From a virus (taxonomy: Duplodnaviria; Heunggongvirae; Uroviricota; Caudoviricetes): a DNA stretch of 29,363 nt. The notes under the pieces are model-generated. The model was not told the DNA's origin, ran no database searches, and saw nothing but the letters and a program-made list of their open reading frames with translations. The position numbers and the translations under genes are program-made. Location of the stretch: positions 1-29,363 of IMG/VR virus record IMGVR_UViG_2713896897_000016, one strand, 5' to 3'. Positions 21,162 to 26,205 of the stretch are shown here, piece after piece; the first letter of the stretch is position 1, and the number at the start of each line of letters is the position of its first letter.

Positions 21162-21608
21162 TTAGTGCCCTGCCGGGATCACCGTGTTAAATAACCGATT
21201 GAACGCCTCGCGCGCCTCCTTCCCCTCTTTGCACAGCTCGCGATCAGGCGCGCCCAGGTTGACGGCGTTTAAAAACTCCGTGATCTCCTTGAGAGCCAGA
21301 GCAGATAAATACTGCGGCGCATCAGGCATTGACACGGCAGCACTACGCAGAACAGGCATGGCGCGTAATGCCGGGCCTGTCAGTTCTGCCGCCATAGCGC
21401 TATAGCGTGGGCCGTCACAGTTCTGGAAAATACGGCGCACCCCTTGCCTAGCGTTGTCCTGGTCACTGTCTGGGTCGGGTAGTAAACTGCCGCCTCCCTC
21501 GTAGTGATACTGTGCTGCTATATCCAGGCCGACGGTTTGCCAGCCCTCGCTCGCTGCCCACTGATTAATAGCCGTGGCAACGGCATCAATCGACGGAGTG
21601 ATTTGCAT
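21162..21608 (-). CDS. YdaT-like (CII-like) regulator
   Basis: GWQTVGLDIAAQYHYEGGGSLLPDPDSDQDNARQGVRRI resembles Rac YdaT as recalled; sits between Cro-like gene and O. Confidence 0.45.
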   Translation of the reverse strand: MQITPSIDAVATAINQWAASEGWQTVGLDIAAQYHYEGGGSLLPDPDSDQDNARQGVRRIFQNCDGPRYSAMAAELTGPALRAMPVLRSAAVSMPDAPQYLSALALKEITEFLNAVNLGAPDRELCKEGKEAREAFNRLFNTVIPAGH

Positions 21609-21816
21609 TTTTCAGCTCCTCGCGACGATTCTGTTTATGCTGGTCATAGATAACGGGGTCGTAAGTTAGAACTCCGCCGGAAGCCTCCTGTAGTCGCATG
21701 GCCCTTGCTTCAGGTACCAACTCTTTCCATTTGTAAAAAGATGGAAGCCTGATGCCCGCAGCCTCCGCTACGCGGGTTTTACTACCAAAAAACTCTAACG
21801 CATCCCTTGTGAACAT
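21586..21816 (-). CDS. Cro-like / YdaS-like HTH regulator
   Basis: Start at MFTRDALEFFGSKTRVAEAAGI... chosen for the AAGGG Shine-Dalgarno 7-8 nt upstream; divergent from the repressor gene. Confidence 0.55.
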   Translation of the reverse strand: MFTRDALEFFGSKTRVAEAAGIRLPSFYKWKELVPEARAMRLQEASGGVLTYDPVIYDQHKQNRREELKNANHSVD

Positions 21817-21898
21817 TATCTTGCCCTTAAAATTAGCCATAACTAATAAAATACAACCAAATAAAAACTTGATCAAGAGATATTAGTATTAGCTAACT
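21817..21898. promoter_or_regulatory. divergent immunity promoter/operator region
   Basis: Perfect palindromes CTTGATCAAG (21868..21877) and TTAGCTAA (21889..21896); minus-strand TTGATC-17-TATTTT promoter-like hexamers for the cro-like gene; the repressor ATG at 21899 has no Shine-Dalgarno (possibly leaderless). Confidence 0.45.
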
Positions 21899-22309
21899 AT
21901 GGATATGAAAAAGTTGACTATCGGCGAACGCATCAGATTCCGCCGCAAAGAGTTGAAATTAACGCAAAAGTCATTAGCTAAGGCCCTTGGGCTGTCTGAT
22001 GTTTCCGTATCGCAGTGGGAAAGAGATGATAGTGAGCCCACGGGGAAGAACCTTTTTGCTTTAGGGAAGGCGCTCCAGTGTTCGGCAACCTGGATTCTCT
22101 ACGGAGATAAAGAACAGACTCCGGGTGTGCCAGTAACTCAGCCGTTAGAGCTTGATGAACAGCAACGAGAGTGGCTTGAATTATTTAATTCATTACCAGA
22201 ATCGGAGCAACTCATACAACTGGAGGCCATGAGAGTAAAAGTCGAAAACTATAATCGACTATTTGATGAACTACTAAAAGCAAGAAAAAGAAACAAAACA
22301 GATAGTTAG
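21899..22309 (+). CDS. immunity repressor, short XRE-family HTH protein without S24 peptidase domain
   Basis: 136 aa; HTH LTQKSLAKALGLSDVSVSQWERDDSEP; divergent from the cro-like gene. Confidence 0.7.
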   Translation: MDMKKLTIGERIRFRRKELKLTQKSLAKALGLSDVSVSQWERDDSEPTGKNLFALGKALQCSATWILYGDKEQTPGVPVTQPLELDEQQREWLELFNSLPESEQLIQLEAMRVKVENYNRLFDELLKARKRNKTDS

Positions 22310-22352
22310 TGGAAATGGAGTAGTTGGATTTCAAGTAAGAGGGAATAGTATT

Positions 22353-22682
22353 TTGATTATTACGCATGAGAAATTTATCAATTTTTTAACTTCTGTTGGC
22401 GCGGGCGTCCAGTGTCCTGTTTGTAAGTTTGTCGGTTGGGATATAAGCGCCACTTGGGAAATCGATACCAGCGAGAAAAAGGACGATCTTATTATTAATC
22501 ATTTGCCTTACGCGAGACTTCATCGGGATGAAACCACGACAGGGTTCTCAGGCGGCCTCCCCCTTCTAATGACTAGTTGTAACAAATGTGGATACACACG
22601 GCTTCATCATTACAAAATCGTCAGTGCTACCATACAGGAAATGGATGATTTAGGGGCTGATGGGGACACTACCAATGAATAA
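22353..22682 (+). CDS. zinc-ribbon protein (two CxxC pairs), unknown function
   Basis: 109-aa ORF with CPVC (res 21-24) and CNKC (res 77-80); apparent TTG start with AAGAGGGA Shine-Dalgarno; AT-rich; directly downstream of the repressor on the same strand. Confidence 0.5.
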   Translation: MIITHEKFINFLTSVGAGVQCPVCKFVGWDISATWEIDTSEKKDDLIINHLPYARLHRDETTTGFSGGLPLLMTSCNKCGYTRLHHYKIVSATIQEMDDLGADGDTTNE

Positions 22683-23049
22683 TGTTATATATACTAATAA
22701 CTGGGGGCCATGTTCAGGTCCTAAAAATGGCGGTGACGGAGGTGGCGGTATGTATGAGGTACGCATCGCAAAACTTGAATCAGACGTTGAAAGCATTAAG
22801 AATGATATTTCTGATCTAAAGGCCAATCTACGAACCGCGAGCACCGACCTTTCAGCAATCAGGCGTGATACGGCGGTTATGCTTCAGAAATTCGTTGATA
22901 TAGATGCTCAACTTTCAACAAAGCCAAGCAAGGATAGCCTCGAGGCCAAGGTGACCAGTTCAGCCAACAAACAAATTATCTGGACTATAGGTTCGATTAT
23001 TGCCACGGTCGGTATGGCTACTGGTCTTATTATAAAAATGATGCACTAA
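22675..23049 (+). CDS. coiled-coil protein with C-terminal transmembrane anchor
   Basis: Start MNNVIYTNN overlaps upstream stop by 8 nt; Gly-rich then heptad-like segment (YEVRIAKLESDVESIKNDISDLKANL) and C-terminal hydrophobic helix IIWTIGSIIATVGMATGLIIKMM; followed by a strong terminator. Confidence 0.5.
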   Translation: MNNVIYTNNWGPCSGPKNGGDGGGGMYEVRIAKLESDVESIKNDISDLKANLRTASTDLSAIRRDTAVMLQKFVDIDAQLSTKPSKDSLEAKVTSSANKQIIWTIGSIIATVGMATGLIIKMMH

Positions 23050-23067
23050 TCCCTTCATACAATAGCA

Positions 23068-23089
23068 CCGGCGAAAGCCGGTTTTTTTT
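23068..23089 (+). terminator. intrinsic terminator
   Basis: CCGGC-gaaa-GCCGG hairpin followed by T8. Confidence 0.7.
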
Positions 23090-23148
23090 CGCTATAAAAC
23101 AGATACTTGAAAAAAATCGGCAATAAATCACGCCAAAATTAAGTTTTA

Positions 23149-23179
23149 ACTTGATTTTAATTTTAGCTATAGCTAACAT
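23149..23179 (+). promoter_or_regulatory. candidate early-left promoter with overlapping operator palindrome
   Basis: TTGATT (23151..23156) - 17 nt - TAACAT (23174..23179); 14-bp palindrome TTAGCTATAGCTAA (23163..23176) overlaps spacer and -10 and shares the TTAGCTA half-site with the region upstream of the repressor gene. Confidence 0.4.
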
Positions 23180-23334
23180 CACATCGTCGAAAGCAGTCAC
23201 CCAGGCAGGATGCCCACGAAGTAGCCGCCAGCGGCATATGAAGAGCTGGATGATGTGACTATCAACAATCACTGCACAGTGATTACTCAGTAAACGTTCC
23301 GTTAGCCGCGACAAGGCCAGATGAGGGATTCGCA

Positions 23335-23736
23335 ATGAGCAACATGACAGTAACCAGGGGAACAGGGTACGACGAGGACAATATCCCGCTTTGTGGTAAG
23401 GGCCTGTTTTATTGGGTTGACGTTAATGGCAGTACCGACATGGACGGTCATCATGAGTTTGGGACCGAAAGAGAGGTCATCGAATTAATTGATGAACTCA
23501 TCCCCGCCCCGCTTTACAACGTTTACCAGCGAGCTGACGGAATGCAGATCGCAGTTAATATCAATGGCACTGCATGTTTTATGCGCCCGTTTAAGCAGGC
23601 CGCATGGCTGCGCACCGGATTTGAAGCTAATCTGGAGTACTACTGGCTCGTTGATAAACAAGTTTCAATCAGCGATACCCCGAATTTAATGGCTCATTTT
23701 GATAACGGGCGATTAGAAGTTGTGGAGGTGTTTTGA
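23335..23736 (+). CDS. hypothetical protein, first gene of the early-left operon
   Basis: 133-aa ORF with GAGGGA Shine-Dalgarno 8 nt upstream; no family recognised. Confidence 0.45.
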   Translation: MSNMTVTRGTGYDEDNIPLCGKGLFYWVDVNGSTDMDGHHEFGTEREVIELIDELIPAPLYNVYQRADGMQIAVNINGTACFMRPFKQAAWLRTGFEANLEYYWLVDKQVSISDTPNLMAHFDNGRLEVVEVF

Positions 23737-23942
23737 TGAAACACCAACACTACGGCACTAAATTAGTTGAGCGCGGAGAGGTGAAGCCCGGAACATTATT
23801 ATTGTACAACGGGAAAATTTACACCGCGTCCGCAAATGTCAAAGCCGGTTTGCATATTAATACGCTACTAGAAAAAACGATGATTAAAAGCAACTTAATC
23901 ACAGTTTTTTTAGATGGTGCAGGCGAGCATTTAATTAACTAA
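23733..23942 (+). CDS. kilR: KilR-like killing protein (cell-division inhibitor family)
   Basis: PGTLLLYNGKIYTASANVKAGLHIN...ITVFLDGAG resembles Rac KilR [21 protein letters not shown]...IKVFLGRDG as recalled. Confidence 0.6.
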   Translation: MMKHQHYGTKLVERGEVKPGTLLLYNGKIYTASANVKAGLHINTLLEKTMIKSNLITVFLDGAGEHLIN

Positions 23943-24006
23943 TCAGAATTAAATTTATTTATGCCCTAACAGGCAGGGATAACCACATTTAATAGCAGGT
24001 CCGATT

Positions 24007-24303
24007 ATGCCAGCTTACGCTATTTATGACGCTATTGAACAGCAACGCAATGACGCTGATGTTATTAATGTCATACGCGAAAAGGAAGAAAAAGAATTAT
24101 CAGAATGGTTTTCAGGGGCAATTAAGCCCCGCTTTATCCAGTCTGCTGTATTGACCGCATTAGGCAGCAGAGCAGATGAAAAAGCAGTAAATAACGCATT
24201 TGATGTTTGCAGTATTGAAGAACTGGTCGCGGAATTTACACAGCAATTGAGTGATGAGATAGCGCGCCAGCAACAGAAAATTAACGACAGTTTCAGAAAT
24301 TAA
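24007..24303 (+). CDS. hypothetical protein
   Basis: 98-aa ORF in early-left operon. Confidence 0.4.
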   Translation: MPAYAIYDAIEQQRNDADVINVIREKEEKELSEWFSGAIKPRFIQSAVLTALGSRADEKAVNNAFDVCSIEELVAEFTQQLSDEIARQQQKINDSFRN

Positions 24304-24312
24304 GGACACAAA

Positions 24313-26205
24313 ATGTCAGAATTAAAAGTCTATATCGGTGCATATATCCCCGACGAAAAATCAATTGAAGAAAACGGCGCTCGCAAAGTTGCCTACGCAT
24401 TTGAAGCGCGTGGTGAAAAACACGCGCGAGCAAAACTTTCATTTGCATTCATTGAGGAATATCCGGGAGCGCAGGACGCAGCATTTAAAAGTTTTCTTTG
24501 CGAGGACGCACCAGGAATGCCCCGCCCCGCTCTTAATGTATGGGATGAGGATTTTCTTTATGAAAATGACTGGTCCGAGGAATTAGGACACCCGGTTTCA
24601 CGTATTGAAGAACCGAAGTCAGTGGATTTTAATAAACTCTCCAGCGAGCAAAAAATCGCCGTATTAGTCAAATACTCCACCGCCGATATAACAACCGATA
24701 TGCTGCCGGACGCGCTGGAATTAACACAGGATGAGGCAGGAACATTCCCCGGTCATATTGTCGAGGCAATTAGTAAAACTCCGGCAATTACTGCTATGTA
24801 CCCCGAGCGTATTATTGAGGCCATTCAGTACGTTGTCAAAAAATGCGCAACTACCAGCAAGTGGCCCGACATCAAAGCGCAGCTCGCGAGCTGGCAGAGC
24901 GGTTTAAATCCTGAGCGCACGGAACCGGAATCAACTGAAAAATTACGCACCCCGTCAGGCGCTACCGCTGGCGGTGGTAACGCCACGGATCGCAATCCTG
25001 ATGTTGAGCATGATTTTAACTCTCTCGCGCTCGAAATCGCGCTGGGTATTCATGCACGGGCGATGGATTTTGATATTTACAATCTCCGCTCCGCGCACAT
25101 TAACCGCGCTCGGGAAATTATTAAGTATAAAGAAAAGCCGTTCCCCGCCCTGTTTGACGCGTTCCGTAATACTCCGGGTGTACTCGATTATTCCCGAGCC
25201 ATGATCATCTACGCGGTCAAAACGGCACCGGAAAATATTGAGAGCACGCCGGGTAAATTATCACACTATCTGAACACCACGCTTACGGAGTCAGACCACG
25301 AACACCCGGATCCGCAAATGATCGCTATTGCGTGTGGTACGCACACCGAAGAATCAAGCCAGGGCGAGCCAGCGCCGCAGGAAGACACACCAGAACCAGA
25401 GCGTCAGGGGCCGTTCTACTACCGCACCCCTCAGGGCGAGGTTGGGCGCGCGAATAAGCTGGCAAAACTGACAGCGGTTATTGAGCAGGGTTGCGAGGAG
25501 ATTACACGCGAGCAGTACACGGAACTCAAAAATGCGCCGTCATATGATGACGTTAGTAAACAGCTCGCAGCACAACGCGGTGAATACGTAGAGGGAATCA
25601 GCGACCCGAATGATCCGAAATGGGTTAAGACCGAAGTTCAACCAGAGGTAAAAAACCACGGTAACGGCGTGTTTTCAATTGAGGGGTTAATGGGCGAGCA
25701 GGAAAAACCAGCGGCCCCGGTCGCCTCAGATGAGGGAGTAAAAGCGAAAGAAGCCCATGTTGTAGCCACCCCGGCCCCGGTTGATTTTCAGGGCGTTGCT
25801 GCAAGTCTCGAAAAAGACATGGCAAACAAAAACGACGAGGCCAGGGGCAATCTCGCTATCTGGCGTAGCGTAATGCGGACCGATCCCCGATTCACAAAAC
25901 AGATGGTGGGAATGGGATTTGAGGGAACCAGCATCAACCCCGAATATATGATTATGCGCGCTACGGAGATATTTGGGCCTATCGGTAGTCGTTGGGGTTT
26001 TGAAATATTAGAGGACCGAATGATTCCGGGCGCTCCTTTTTCTGAGGCTGTTTATGAGGATAAAAAATTCATTTGCAACCGCATGTTGCGTGACGGTGAC
26101 GGCACCTTGCTGCATGAACAAAACCACAGCATTAAAATCCGCCTGTGGTATCAGGTCGGTGCTGATGAGGGATCGGTATATGTTCAAAACGAAACACGGA
26201 ATTAA
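24313..26205 (+). CDS. large uncharacterised protein whose C-terminal ~130 aa form the start of a Rad52/Erf/Sak-like single-strand annealing domain (interrupted)
   Basis: Continuous 630-aa frame; C-terminal MVGMGFEGTSINPEYMIMRATEIFGPIGSRWGFEI resembles Rad52-family RVGFGNQ...INLANEIFGYNGWSHSI; N-terminal ~500 aa not recognised; frame ends at 26205 inside the expected domain. Confidence 0.5.
   Translation: MSELKVYIGAYIPDEKSIEENGARKVAYAFEARGEKHARAKLSFAFIEEYPGAQDAAFKSFLCEDAPGMPRPALNVWDEDFLYENDWSEELGHPVSRIEEPKSVDFNKLSSEQKIAVLVKYSTADITTDMLPDALELTQDEAGTFPGHIVEAISKTPAITAMYPERIIEAIQYVVKKCATTSKWPDIKAQLASWQSGLNPERTEPESTEKLRTPSGATAGGGNATDRNPDVEHDFNSLALEIALGIHARAMDFDIYNLRSAHINRAREIIKYKEKPFPALFDAFRNTPGVLDYSRAMIIYAVKTAPENIESTPGKLSHYLNTTLTESDHEHPDPQMIAIACGTHTEESSQGEPAPQEDTPEPERQGPFYYRTPQGEVGRANKLAKLTAVIEQGCEEITREQYTELKNAPSYDDVSKQLAAQRGEYVEGISDPNDPKWVKTEVQPEVKNHGNGVFSIEGLMGEQEKPAAPVASDEGVKAKEAHVVATPAPVDFQGVAASLEKDMANKNDEARGNLAIWRSVMRTDPRFTKQMVGMGFEGTSINPEYMIMRATEIFGPIGSRWGFEILEDRMIPGAPFSEAVYEDKKFICNRMLRDGDGTLLHEQNHSIKIRLWYQVGADEGSVYVQNETRN

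Follow-up and report, generated by a model that had tools for sequence, protein, structure and literature searches.

Two genes that directly follow the repressor gene in a lambdoid prophage of Escherichia albertii, here called A and B, form a translationally linked and co-inherited pair in which B is the constant component, while the partner varies among three unrelated families, of which the zinc-ribbon A type is one. The prophage was analyzed as a stretch of 29,363 nucleotides (nt), IMG/VR record IMGVR_UViG_2713896897_000016, which in its full length is referred to below as the window. Proteins A and B are each 100% identical to E. albertii hypothetical proteins (EMK8059119.1 and EMK8059118.1, respectively). 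From its sequence we tentatively read the pair as an accessory cassette, or moron, that is co-transcribed with the repressor and may act in the lysogen as a phage-exclusion or abortive-infection module. In temperate phages, the slot next to the repressor is the one in which RexAB, a system of still unresolved mechanism, was discovered. Here an unrelated two-gene cassette fills that slot, as well as the slot held by sieA in P22 and a moron site in the tail region. Many prophages of Escherichia, Salmonella, Klebsiella, Enterobacter, Serratia, and Yersinia carry the cassette, among them the Stx1 prophage of E. coli O157 Sakai. Three points are absent from the first-pass annotation of the window, which had been made from the DNA letters and their open reading frames (ORFs): the constancy of B, the three interchangeable partner families, and a predicted, conserved internal ribosome-binding site (RBS) in B.

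A constant membrane protein with exchangeable partners

Gene A encodes a cytosolic zinc-ribbon protein of 109 amino acids (aa) (Table 1). Its two CxxC pairs, C21/C24 and C76/C79, provide the only invariant columns in a 77-sequence alignment of the A family, and two CxxC knuckles kept across homologues are the generic mark of a zinc ribbon. The AlphaFold2 (AF2) model of A has a predicted local distance difference test (pLDDT) score of 94. A k-mer-limited protein search with A returned only the identical E. albertii protein, and neither tblastn against phage records nor a pattern scan of viral contigs with A alone gave a match. Remote relatives were reached only by a full HMMER search of 1.8 billion representative proteins, which yielded 104 A clusters, mostly of 80–126 aa. 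No Pfam, NCBIfam, or PADLOC family matched A.

The start codon of B overlaps the stop codon of A by 8 nt, within ATGAATAA. The Salmonella orthologue of B has no in-frame start further 5′, and the same ATGAATAA stop/start overlap is found in both genomes; we therefore take the 124-aa protein with the 8-nt overlap as the correct long form, in preference to the 129-aa form that would begin at an alternative ATG at 22660. Within the long form a Gly-rich run, GGDGGGG, occupies residues 19–25 and a long helix is predicted over residues 26–81. A C-terminal transmembrane (TM) helix follows at residues ~100–120, where AF2 models a helix over residues 97–123, and it is preceded by a conserved K-x-x-x-W, with W103 nearly invariant. 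From N to C terminus, the family layout consists of a short variable peptide, a Gly/Asp-rich linker, a near-invariant Met and helix, a coiled coil of variable length, the K-x-x-x-W, and the TM helix. The conserved helix motif is M-x-x-R-[VIL]-A-x-L-E-x-x-V-x-x-I-K, in which R30 and E35 are invariant. The B family comprises 189 clusters, none of which has a Pfam domain or any annotation other than hypothetical; the hosts are Escherichia, Salmonella, Klebsiella, Enterobacter, Serratia, Yersinia, Pectobacterium, Brenneria, Pantoea, and Hafnia. A Pfam scan of 38 members gave sub-threshold coiled-coil matches only, to FlaC_arch in 29 of the 38 and to XhlA in 10 (best E = 0.0035).

Longer stalks were seen in two B homologues. 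One (L100, 3899–4531) carries about six tandem copies of ATKADLQ(N/S)F, and the other (L103, 3956–4396) has tandem repeats of the type S-x-E-L-S-L-x-x-K-I-Q-S-V. These tandem-repeat stalks indicate that the length of the B coiled coil is evolutionarily adjustable.

We compared the window with the Salmonella prophage L005 for the proportions of synonymous (pS) and nonsynonymous (pN) differences. In both A and B the synonymous sites are saturated (pS 0.75–0.79) and pN is 0.13–0.19; for the first 25 codons of B the values are 0.59 and 0.07, respectively. Judged by these sequence comparisons, A and B are real genes under purifying selection.

The pair recurs as a unit. In Salmonella prophages, a DicA-like repressor is followed by homologues of A (66% identity) and B (75% identity) that overlap by the same 8 nt, and then by KilR and Gam. 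Salmonella phage 29485 and related prophages carry more distant versions of A, a 124-aa zinc-ribbon protein, and of B, which overlap in ATGATTAA and lie between an Arc/Bro-N antirepressor region and the tape-measure gene. Three remote A homologues picked from the HMMER list (P0124, P0128, and P0139) are each located 3′ of a CI-type repressor and are followed by an overlapping gene for a short B-like protein with GGGDD-M, a coiled coil, KxxxW, and a TM helix. Remote A homologues with a B-like gene downstream are ~25–30% identical to A, and the stop/start overlap form ATGAnTAA is conserved among the pairs.

Scanning IMG/VR with the B alignment gave 80 loci, and a script then analyzed all loci, with 102 B genes in total. 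An adjacent, same-strand upstream partner is present for 101 of the 102. The partner is of the zinc-ribbon A type in 38 loci, of the HK544 gp41/ECs2991 type (phrog_12039 and phrog_4231) in 33, and of a third type, ~140–155 aa long and forming one BLAST cluster of 24 distinct sequences, in 30; the third family has no PHROG or Pfam match. By profile match, A belongs to PHROG 4293 and members of the B family to PHROGs 3556, 12602, 6136, and 6324, all of which are listed as "unknown function". The pairing of these families appears not to have been described previously. Accession and keyword searches of the literature found no paper on the A-B pair, with incomplete coverage, so that an earlier description is possible. 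The text and the consulted part of the supplements of the DefensePredictor paper contain no matching sequences, and in the Tai paper (PMC11364771) HK544 serves only as a challenge phage.

Among 16 non-redundant pairs of the zinc-ribbon type, identity of A tracks identity of the N-terminal peptide of B (Spearman 0.28, Mantel p = 0.002), whereas A identity and the B core are uncorrelated (rho = -0.05, p = 0.69). For instance, loci L018 and L019 share 25% identity in A and 87% in the B core. This pattern fits a history in which A and the N-terminal peptide, as one unit, may have been recombined onto different B cores at the conserved linker. A duplication was ruled out for the HK544 pair, as gp41 has no detectable relation to the N-terminal extension of gp40.

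The anatomy agrees with the first-pass annotation, which had described a 109-aa protein with two CxxC pairs and, overlapping it by 8 nt, a protein with a Gly-rich segment, a helix, and a C-terminal TM helix; the overlap is kept in the Salmonella orthologue. That annotation had also proposed to look for co-occurrence of the two genes in other prophages, a check clearly passed by the Salmonella units, the remote A homologues, and the nearly complete partnering of B.

A predicted internal start site in gene B

A GGAGG core stands ahead of the ATG of Met26 in B (Table 1), and the candidate short form that would begin there is 99 aa long (22750–23049). Among 51 distinct B genes, a Shine-Dalgarno (SD) core of at least 5 bases sits 4–10 nt before the conserved Met codon in 38, and in 34 of these 38 it is GGAGG at exactly 7 nt. 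Eleven of the 51 genes have no SD score, most of them with a G run at this place. At position -4, 49 of the 51 genes use GGA or GGG for Gly, as compared with 13–32% at neighboring Gly positions and 38% elsewhere in the gene. In the window, the predicted duplex with the anti-SD sequence is worth -10.8 kcal/mol at the internal site versus -5.5 kcal/mol at the long-form start. The averages are -10.7 kcal/mol for the internal site, -5.5 for the overlapping long-form start, and -2.0 for background positions, and the internal RBS is predicted to be stronger than the overlapping start in 22 of 24 genes. Public annotations of B differ, with 99-aa, 124-aa, and 129-aa forms.

Together these features suggest, at the level of sequence, that B carries a conserved internal RBS and that two isoforms are made from one gene. 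The putative internal SD motif of B is a new observation here. The GGAGG-N7-ATG arrangement is absent from the most distant B-like gene (metagenomic locus L022), and the predicted internal start so far holds for the Enterobacterales family only.

The strength of the internal site also lends itself to a different reading, in which B is made solely from Met26 and the stretch between the A stop and the Met26 ATG is an untranslated open spacer, with neither a long form nor an N-terminal peptide on which a partner could dock. The large difference in duplex energy would favor this, as would the habit of annotation pipelines of often calling a 93–100-aa form. We consider it improbable, however, given that the frame is open from the internal Met back to the partner stop in all lineages, including ~77 codons in the gp40 type. 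The first 25 codons also show the low pN and high pS reported above, the Gly run varies mainly at third codon positions, and the ATGAnTAA overlap is conserved. With purifying selection on the codons 5′ of Met26 and a frame that never closes before the partner stop, we read the internal site as a probable source of two isoforms rather than as a mis-called start.

Genomic slots and candidate functions

The repressor gene is the first gene of a transcription unit that runs through A and B to an intrinsic terminator. Gene A starts 43 nt past the repressor stop, the gap contains no terminator-like site, and no separate promoter was predicted for the A-B pair. The terminator folds at -14.5 kcal/mol (z = -4.3), an energy reached by 0 of 200 shuffles. 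One copy of an operator-like repeat with the consensus TTAG(C/T)AT(A/T)AGCTAAC lies on each side of the repressor-A-B unit, the copy on the left-operator (OL) side being situated between the terminator and the kil-gam operon. The repeats on both sides place the cassette within an operator-bounded immunity region, as is the case for rexAB in lambda. The rexAB-equivalent position and the strong terminator claimed in the first-pass annotation are thereby borne out. Its description of the block as visibly AT-rich holds only relative to the whole window (GC content of 43.6% versus 49.6%); there is no contrast with the neighbors, as the immunity/early-left region (21586–24303) has a GC content of 43.1% and the repressor gene 43.6%. 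The A-B block was therefore ruled out as a compositional island, its GC content being equal to that of the surrounding immunity region.

Across phages the pair occupies a small set of slots. The rexAB slot, between cI and the leftward promoter PL, holds a gp41/gp40-type pair both in HK544, which has lambda immunity, and in VT1-Sakai (Sp15, the Stx1 prophage). UPF_BP1, which is P22-like, carries the pair downstream of mnt, with arc and ant adjacent and ahead of gene 16; sieA occupies this position in P22. In other Salmonella phages it is found at the tail-region moron site, beside Arc/Bro-N antirepressor genes and before the tape-measure gene. Directly 5′ of the partner, a cluster of helix-turn-helix (HTH) repressors (47 distinct sequences) is present in 75 of 100 loci, a Mnt-like gene in ~7, and an antirepressor gene in ~8. 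None of 80 loci with a repressor 61–73% identical to that of the window contains A or B, which indicates that the pair is accessory cargo and not part of the switch. In most of the repressor-related loci there is apparently no gene starting within ~150 nt of the repressor stop (ten examples). ECs2991, a homologous partner protein, has been detected by proteomics in uninduced O157 cells (PMC3936929). The slots and this detection back the view that the pair is lysogen-expressed accessory cargo in exclusion hotspots. At the nucleotide level, searches with the region gave no match in phages, and in E. coli genomes they matched only fragments of 53 nt.

As the rexAB slot, the sieA slot, and the tail-region moron site are those of known exclusion genes, exclusion or abortive infection is the best explanation that we can offer for the pair. 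A working model would run as follows. B would be a tail-anchored inner-membrane protein whose cytoplasmic coiled coil oligomerizes and is joined to the short N-terminal peptide by a flexible Gly-rich linker. The cytosolic A, a zinc protein with four cysteines, would dock on this peptide as a specificity or sensor subunit. Upon a cue from an infecting phage the B oligomer might perturb the inner membrane, and the outcome would be either depolarization of the cell, as in Rex-like abortive infection, or a block to entry of the incoming genome. A short B lacking the docking peptide, produced from the internal RBS, could set the threshold in a manner comparable to holin/antiholin and SieB/Esc.

Several points weigh against this proposal. 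There is no phenotype on record for any member of the A or B family and no paper was found on the pair, and neither protein matched a PADLOC defense model. A cytoplasmic N terminus of B is an assumption, and a single TM helix is a weak basis for a pore. The correlation between A and the N-terminal peptide can also stem simply from their adjacency on the DNA. A single-chain A-linker-B co-fold with 15 paired sequences had low confidence (pLDDT 56.8) and predicted no contact, which is not evidence against an interaction. Finally, a repressor-adjacent position is also typical of addiction modules such as paaA2-parE2. The first-pass annotation had likewise read the pair as a lysogen-expressed exclusion or abortive-infection module; this reading is partly supported, by the anatomy, the position, and the placement in exclusion slots.

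The main rival is an addiction or toxin-antitoxin (TA) module, with B as a small membrane toxin and A as its upstream, translationally coupled antidote, stabilizing the prophage or the immunity region; phages would not be its main target. The gene order and 8-nt overlap are typical of type II TA pairs, B almost never occurs without a partner (1 of 102), and a constant membrane component with exchangeable partners resembles TA mix-and-match. Moreover, paaA2-parE2 of CP-933P, a proven TA pair, lies directly 3′ of the PaaR2 repressor gene within an immunity region of the YdaS/YdaT type (PMC8630535). As in the window, the paaR2 repressor gene is divergent from YdaS/Cro-like and YdaT/CII-like genes, and a two-gene cassette follows it. 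However, the CP-933P pair consists of a soluble toxin of the gyrase type (ParE2) and a small, disordered antitoxin (PaaA2), whereas A and B have neither a ParE nor a known antitoxin fold and one of them is membrane-anchored. No known toxin or antitoxin family in Pfam, NCBIfam, or PADLOC matched either protein, and the pair lacks a predicted promoter of its own. It is the part of B beside the partner that varies with the partner, and the presumed toxic core is constant; an antitoxin neutralizing the core should track the core. The pair is also present in the sieA slot and at tail-region moron sites, where addiction is less sensible. On balance we find a TA module unlikely.

A modulator of the prophage life cycle or of host physiology seems to us a rather improbable account. 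Such a pair would tune lysis-lysogeny or induction, as RexA does, or envelope and stress properties in the manner of ElaB/YqjD, tail-anchored host proteins with a coiled-coil helix and a C-terminal TM helix. Co-transcription with the repressor would suit this role, as would the lack of an S24 cleavage domain in the repressor, so that induction needs another route, and the architecture that B shares with ElaB/YqjD. Yet the switch can do without the pair, which is missing at every one of the 80 loci whose repressors are close relatives of that in the window, and the pair occurs with unrelated immunity systems (CI with S24, DicA type, and Mnt). No DNA-binding or regulatory domain was detected in the pair.

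Comparison with characterized systems places the exclusion reading in context. Like A-B, the RexA-RexB pair of lambda consists of two genes that share a transcript with the repressor, occupy the interval from the repressor gene to OL/PL, and end at a terminator, and it combines one soluble and one membrane protein. In the lambda-immunity phage HK544, RexA-RexB is literally replaced by a B homologue with a different partner. The proteins themselves differ: RexA is a DNA-binding protein of ~280 aa and A a zinc-ribbon protein of 109 aa, and RexB has four TM helices whereas B has a coiled coil and a single C-terminal TM helix. The interchangeable partner and the predicted internal start site in B also set the cassette apart from RexAB. 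Neither A nor B matched the Rex families in Pfam, PADLOC, NCBIfam, or PHROG, and SieB (PF14163) was not matched at E <= 0.1, in agreement with the statement in the first-pass annotation that neither protein resembles RexA, RexB, or SieB. A-B is thus a Rex-like arrangement, a repressor-linked soluble and membrane pair, built from unrelated proteins.

P22 SieA, SieB/Esc, and HK97 gp15 are, like A-B, small lysogen-expressed membrane proteins in moron slots, and the HK97 gp15 moron sits ahead of the tape-measure gene, as does the pair in Salmonella phages. An internal start in SieB produces Esc; in B, the conserved GGAGG-N7-ATG at Met26 is the corresponding sequence evidence. These proteins are not homologous to A-B, act without an obligate soluble partner, and have a different topology. 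XhlA (PF10779) and ElaB/YqjD are built like B, with a coiled-coil helix at the N terminus and one TM helix at the C terminus, but B of the window scores only 11.9 bits against XhlA, for which the Pfam gathering cut-off is 34.7, and its context is an immunity region rather than a lysis cassette. Profile searches against PDB sequences gave only generic zinc-knuckle and coiled-coil noise.

More speculatively, the loci may together represent an undescribed, modular prophage immune family in which a two-isoform, tail-anchored coiled-coil effector combines with three swappable cytosolic partners that set specificity, and which has repeatedly replaced RexAB or SieA in lambdoid and P22-like prophages of Enterobacterales. 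If the cassette is a defense system, it would add to the prophage immune repertoire a small, genetically tractable, and modular family, with a constant membrane part and an exchangeable partner, and it would influence the host range of phages among enterobacteria of clinical relevance. The internal start, being conserved, would then offer a handle on how membrane effectors stay silent until infection.

The immunity region of the window and other cargo

On the plus strand of the window the order is DicA-family repressor, A, B, terminator, a 133-aa ORF, kil, gam, a RecE-like exonuclease, and an integrase at the window end. The minus-strand neighbors are P-like and O-like replication genes, a CII/YdaT-like gene, and a P22_Cro-type gene, the repressor gene being divergent from the latter two. 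The repressor consists of an HTH domain and a C-terminal helical part and has no S24 peptidase domain; RecA-stimulated self-cleavage is therefore impossible, and induction presumably proceeds via an antirepressor or another route. The coordinates of the main features are collected in Table 1.

Table 1. Features of the repressor-A-B unit and its flanks in the window.
Feature	Position	Strand	Remarks
Operator-like repeat, right-operator (OR) side, cro-like/repressor intergenic region	21880..21897	.	ATATTAGTATTAGCTAAC, 78% match to 23160-23177
Prophage repressor, DicA family, 136 aa	21899..22309	+	NCBIfam NF007257 DicA, E = 1.4e-58; Pfam HTH_3, E = 2e-15
Gene A, 109-aa cytosolic zinc-ribbon protein, TTG start	22353..22682	+	phrog_4293, E = 6.7e-12
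Gene B, long form, 124 aa, ATG start	22675..23049	+	phrog_3556, E = 2.3e-31
Internal SD core and ATG of Met26 in B (candidate)	22738..22752	+	GGAGG 22738-22742, 7-nt spacer, ATG 22750-22752
C-terminal TM helix segment of B (~residues 100-120)	22972..23034	+	Kyte-Doolittle 19-residue mean 1.87 at residues 101-120
Intrinsic terminator closing the repressor-A-B unit	23067..23090	+	ACCGGCGAAAGCCGGT (GC-rich stem), then eight T
Operator-like repeat, OL side, 5′ of early-left operon	23160..23177	.	direct repeat D1; contains palindrome TTAGCTATAGCTAA

Other occupants of the repressor-proximal slot were also seen. One lambdoid contig (L021, 1150–1524) has an additional gene between CI and the A-B pair, for a 124-aa protein with an N-terminal TM helix, indicating that the slot can stack further cargo. 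In locus L169 (3930–4400), where the repressor is 73% identical to that of the window, the repressor is followed by other cargo, a 156-aa protein with an N-terminal TM helix and then ORFs of 101 and 120 aa; this is another uncharacterized occupant of the slot. In UPF_BP1 (L002, 2313–2570) a gene is annotated as "partition protein ATPase". The encoded protein begins MARDDPHFNFRMP and is the Mnt repressor of P22-like phages; the public record is misannotated.

The early-left operon of the window comprises the 133-aa ORF, kil (phrog_294), gam (PF06064), and the exonuclease. The 133-aa ORF (23335–23736) is the first after the OL-like operator, at the position of lambda N; unlike N proteins it is not Arg-rich, and it had no match in Pfam, PHROGs, PADLOC, or NCBIfam. 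The RecE-like exonuclease appears to be split into a 630-aa ORF (24313–26205) and an overlapping 191-aa ORF in another frame (26054–26629), which match consecutive parts of phrog_2489 (up to ~567, then 580–728). The split suggests a frameshift, and the prophage may be partly decayed, or the sequence may contain an error. The early-left operon also contains two distinct end-protection or nuclease-inhibitor genes, one lambda Gam-like (PF06064, 24007–24303) and one Mu Gam-like (phrog_253, 26626–27123).

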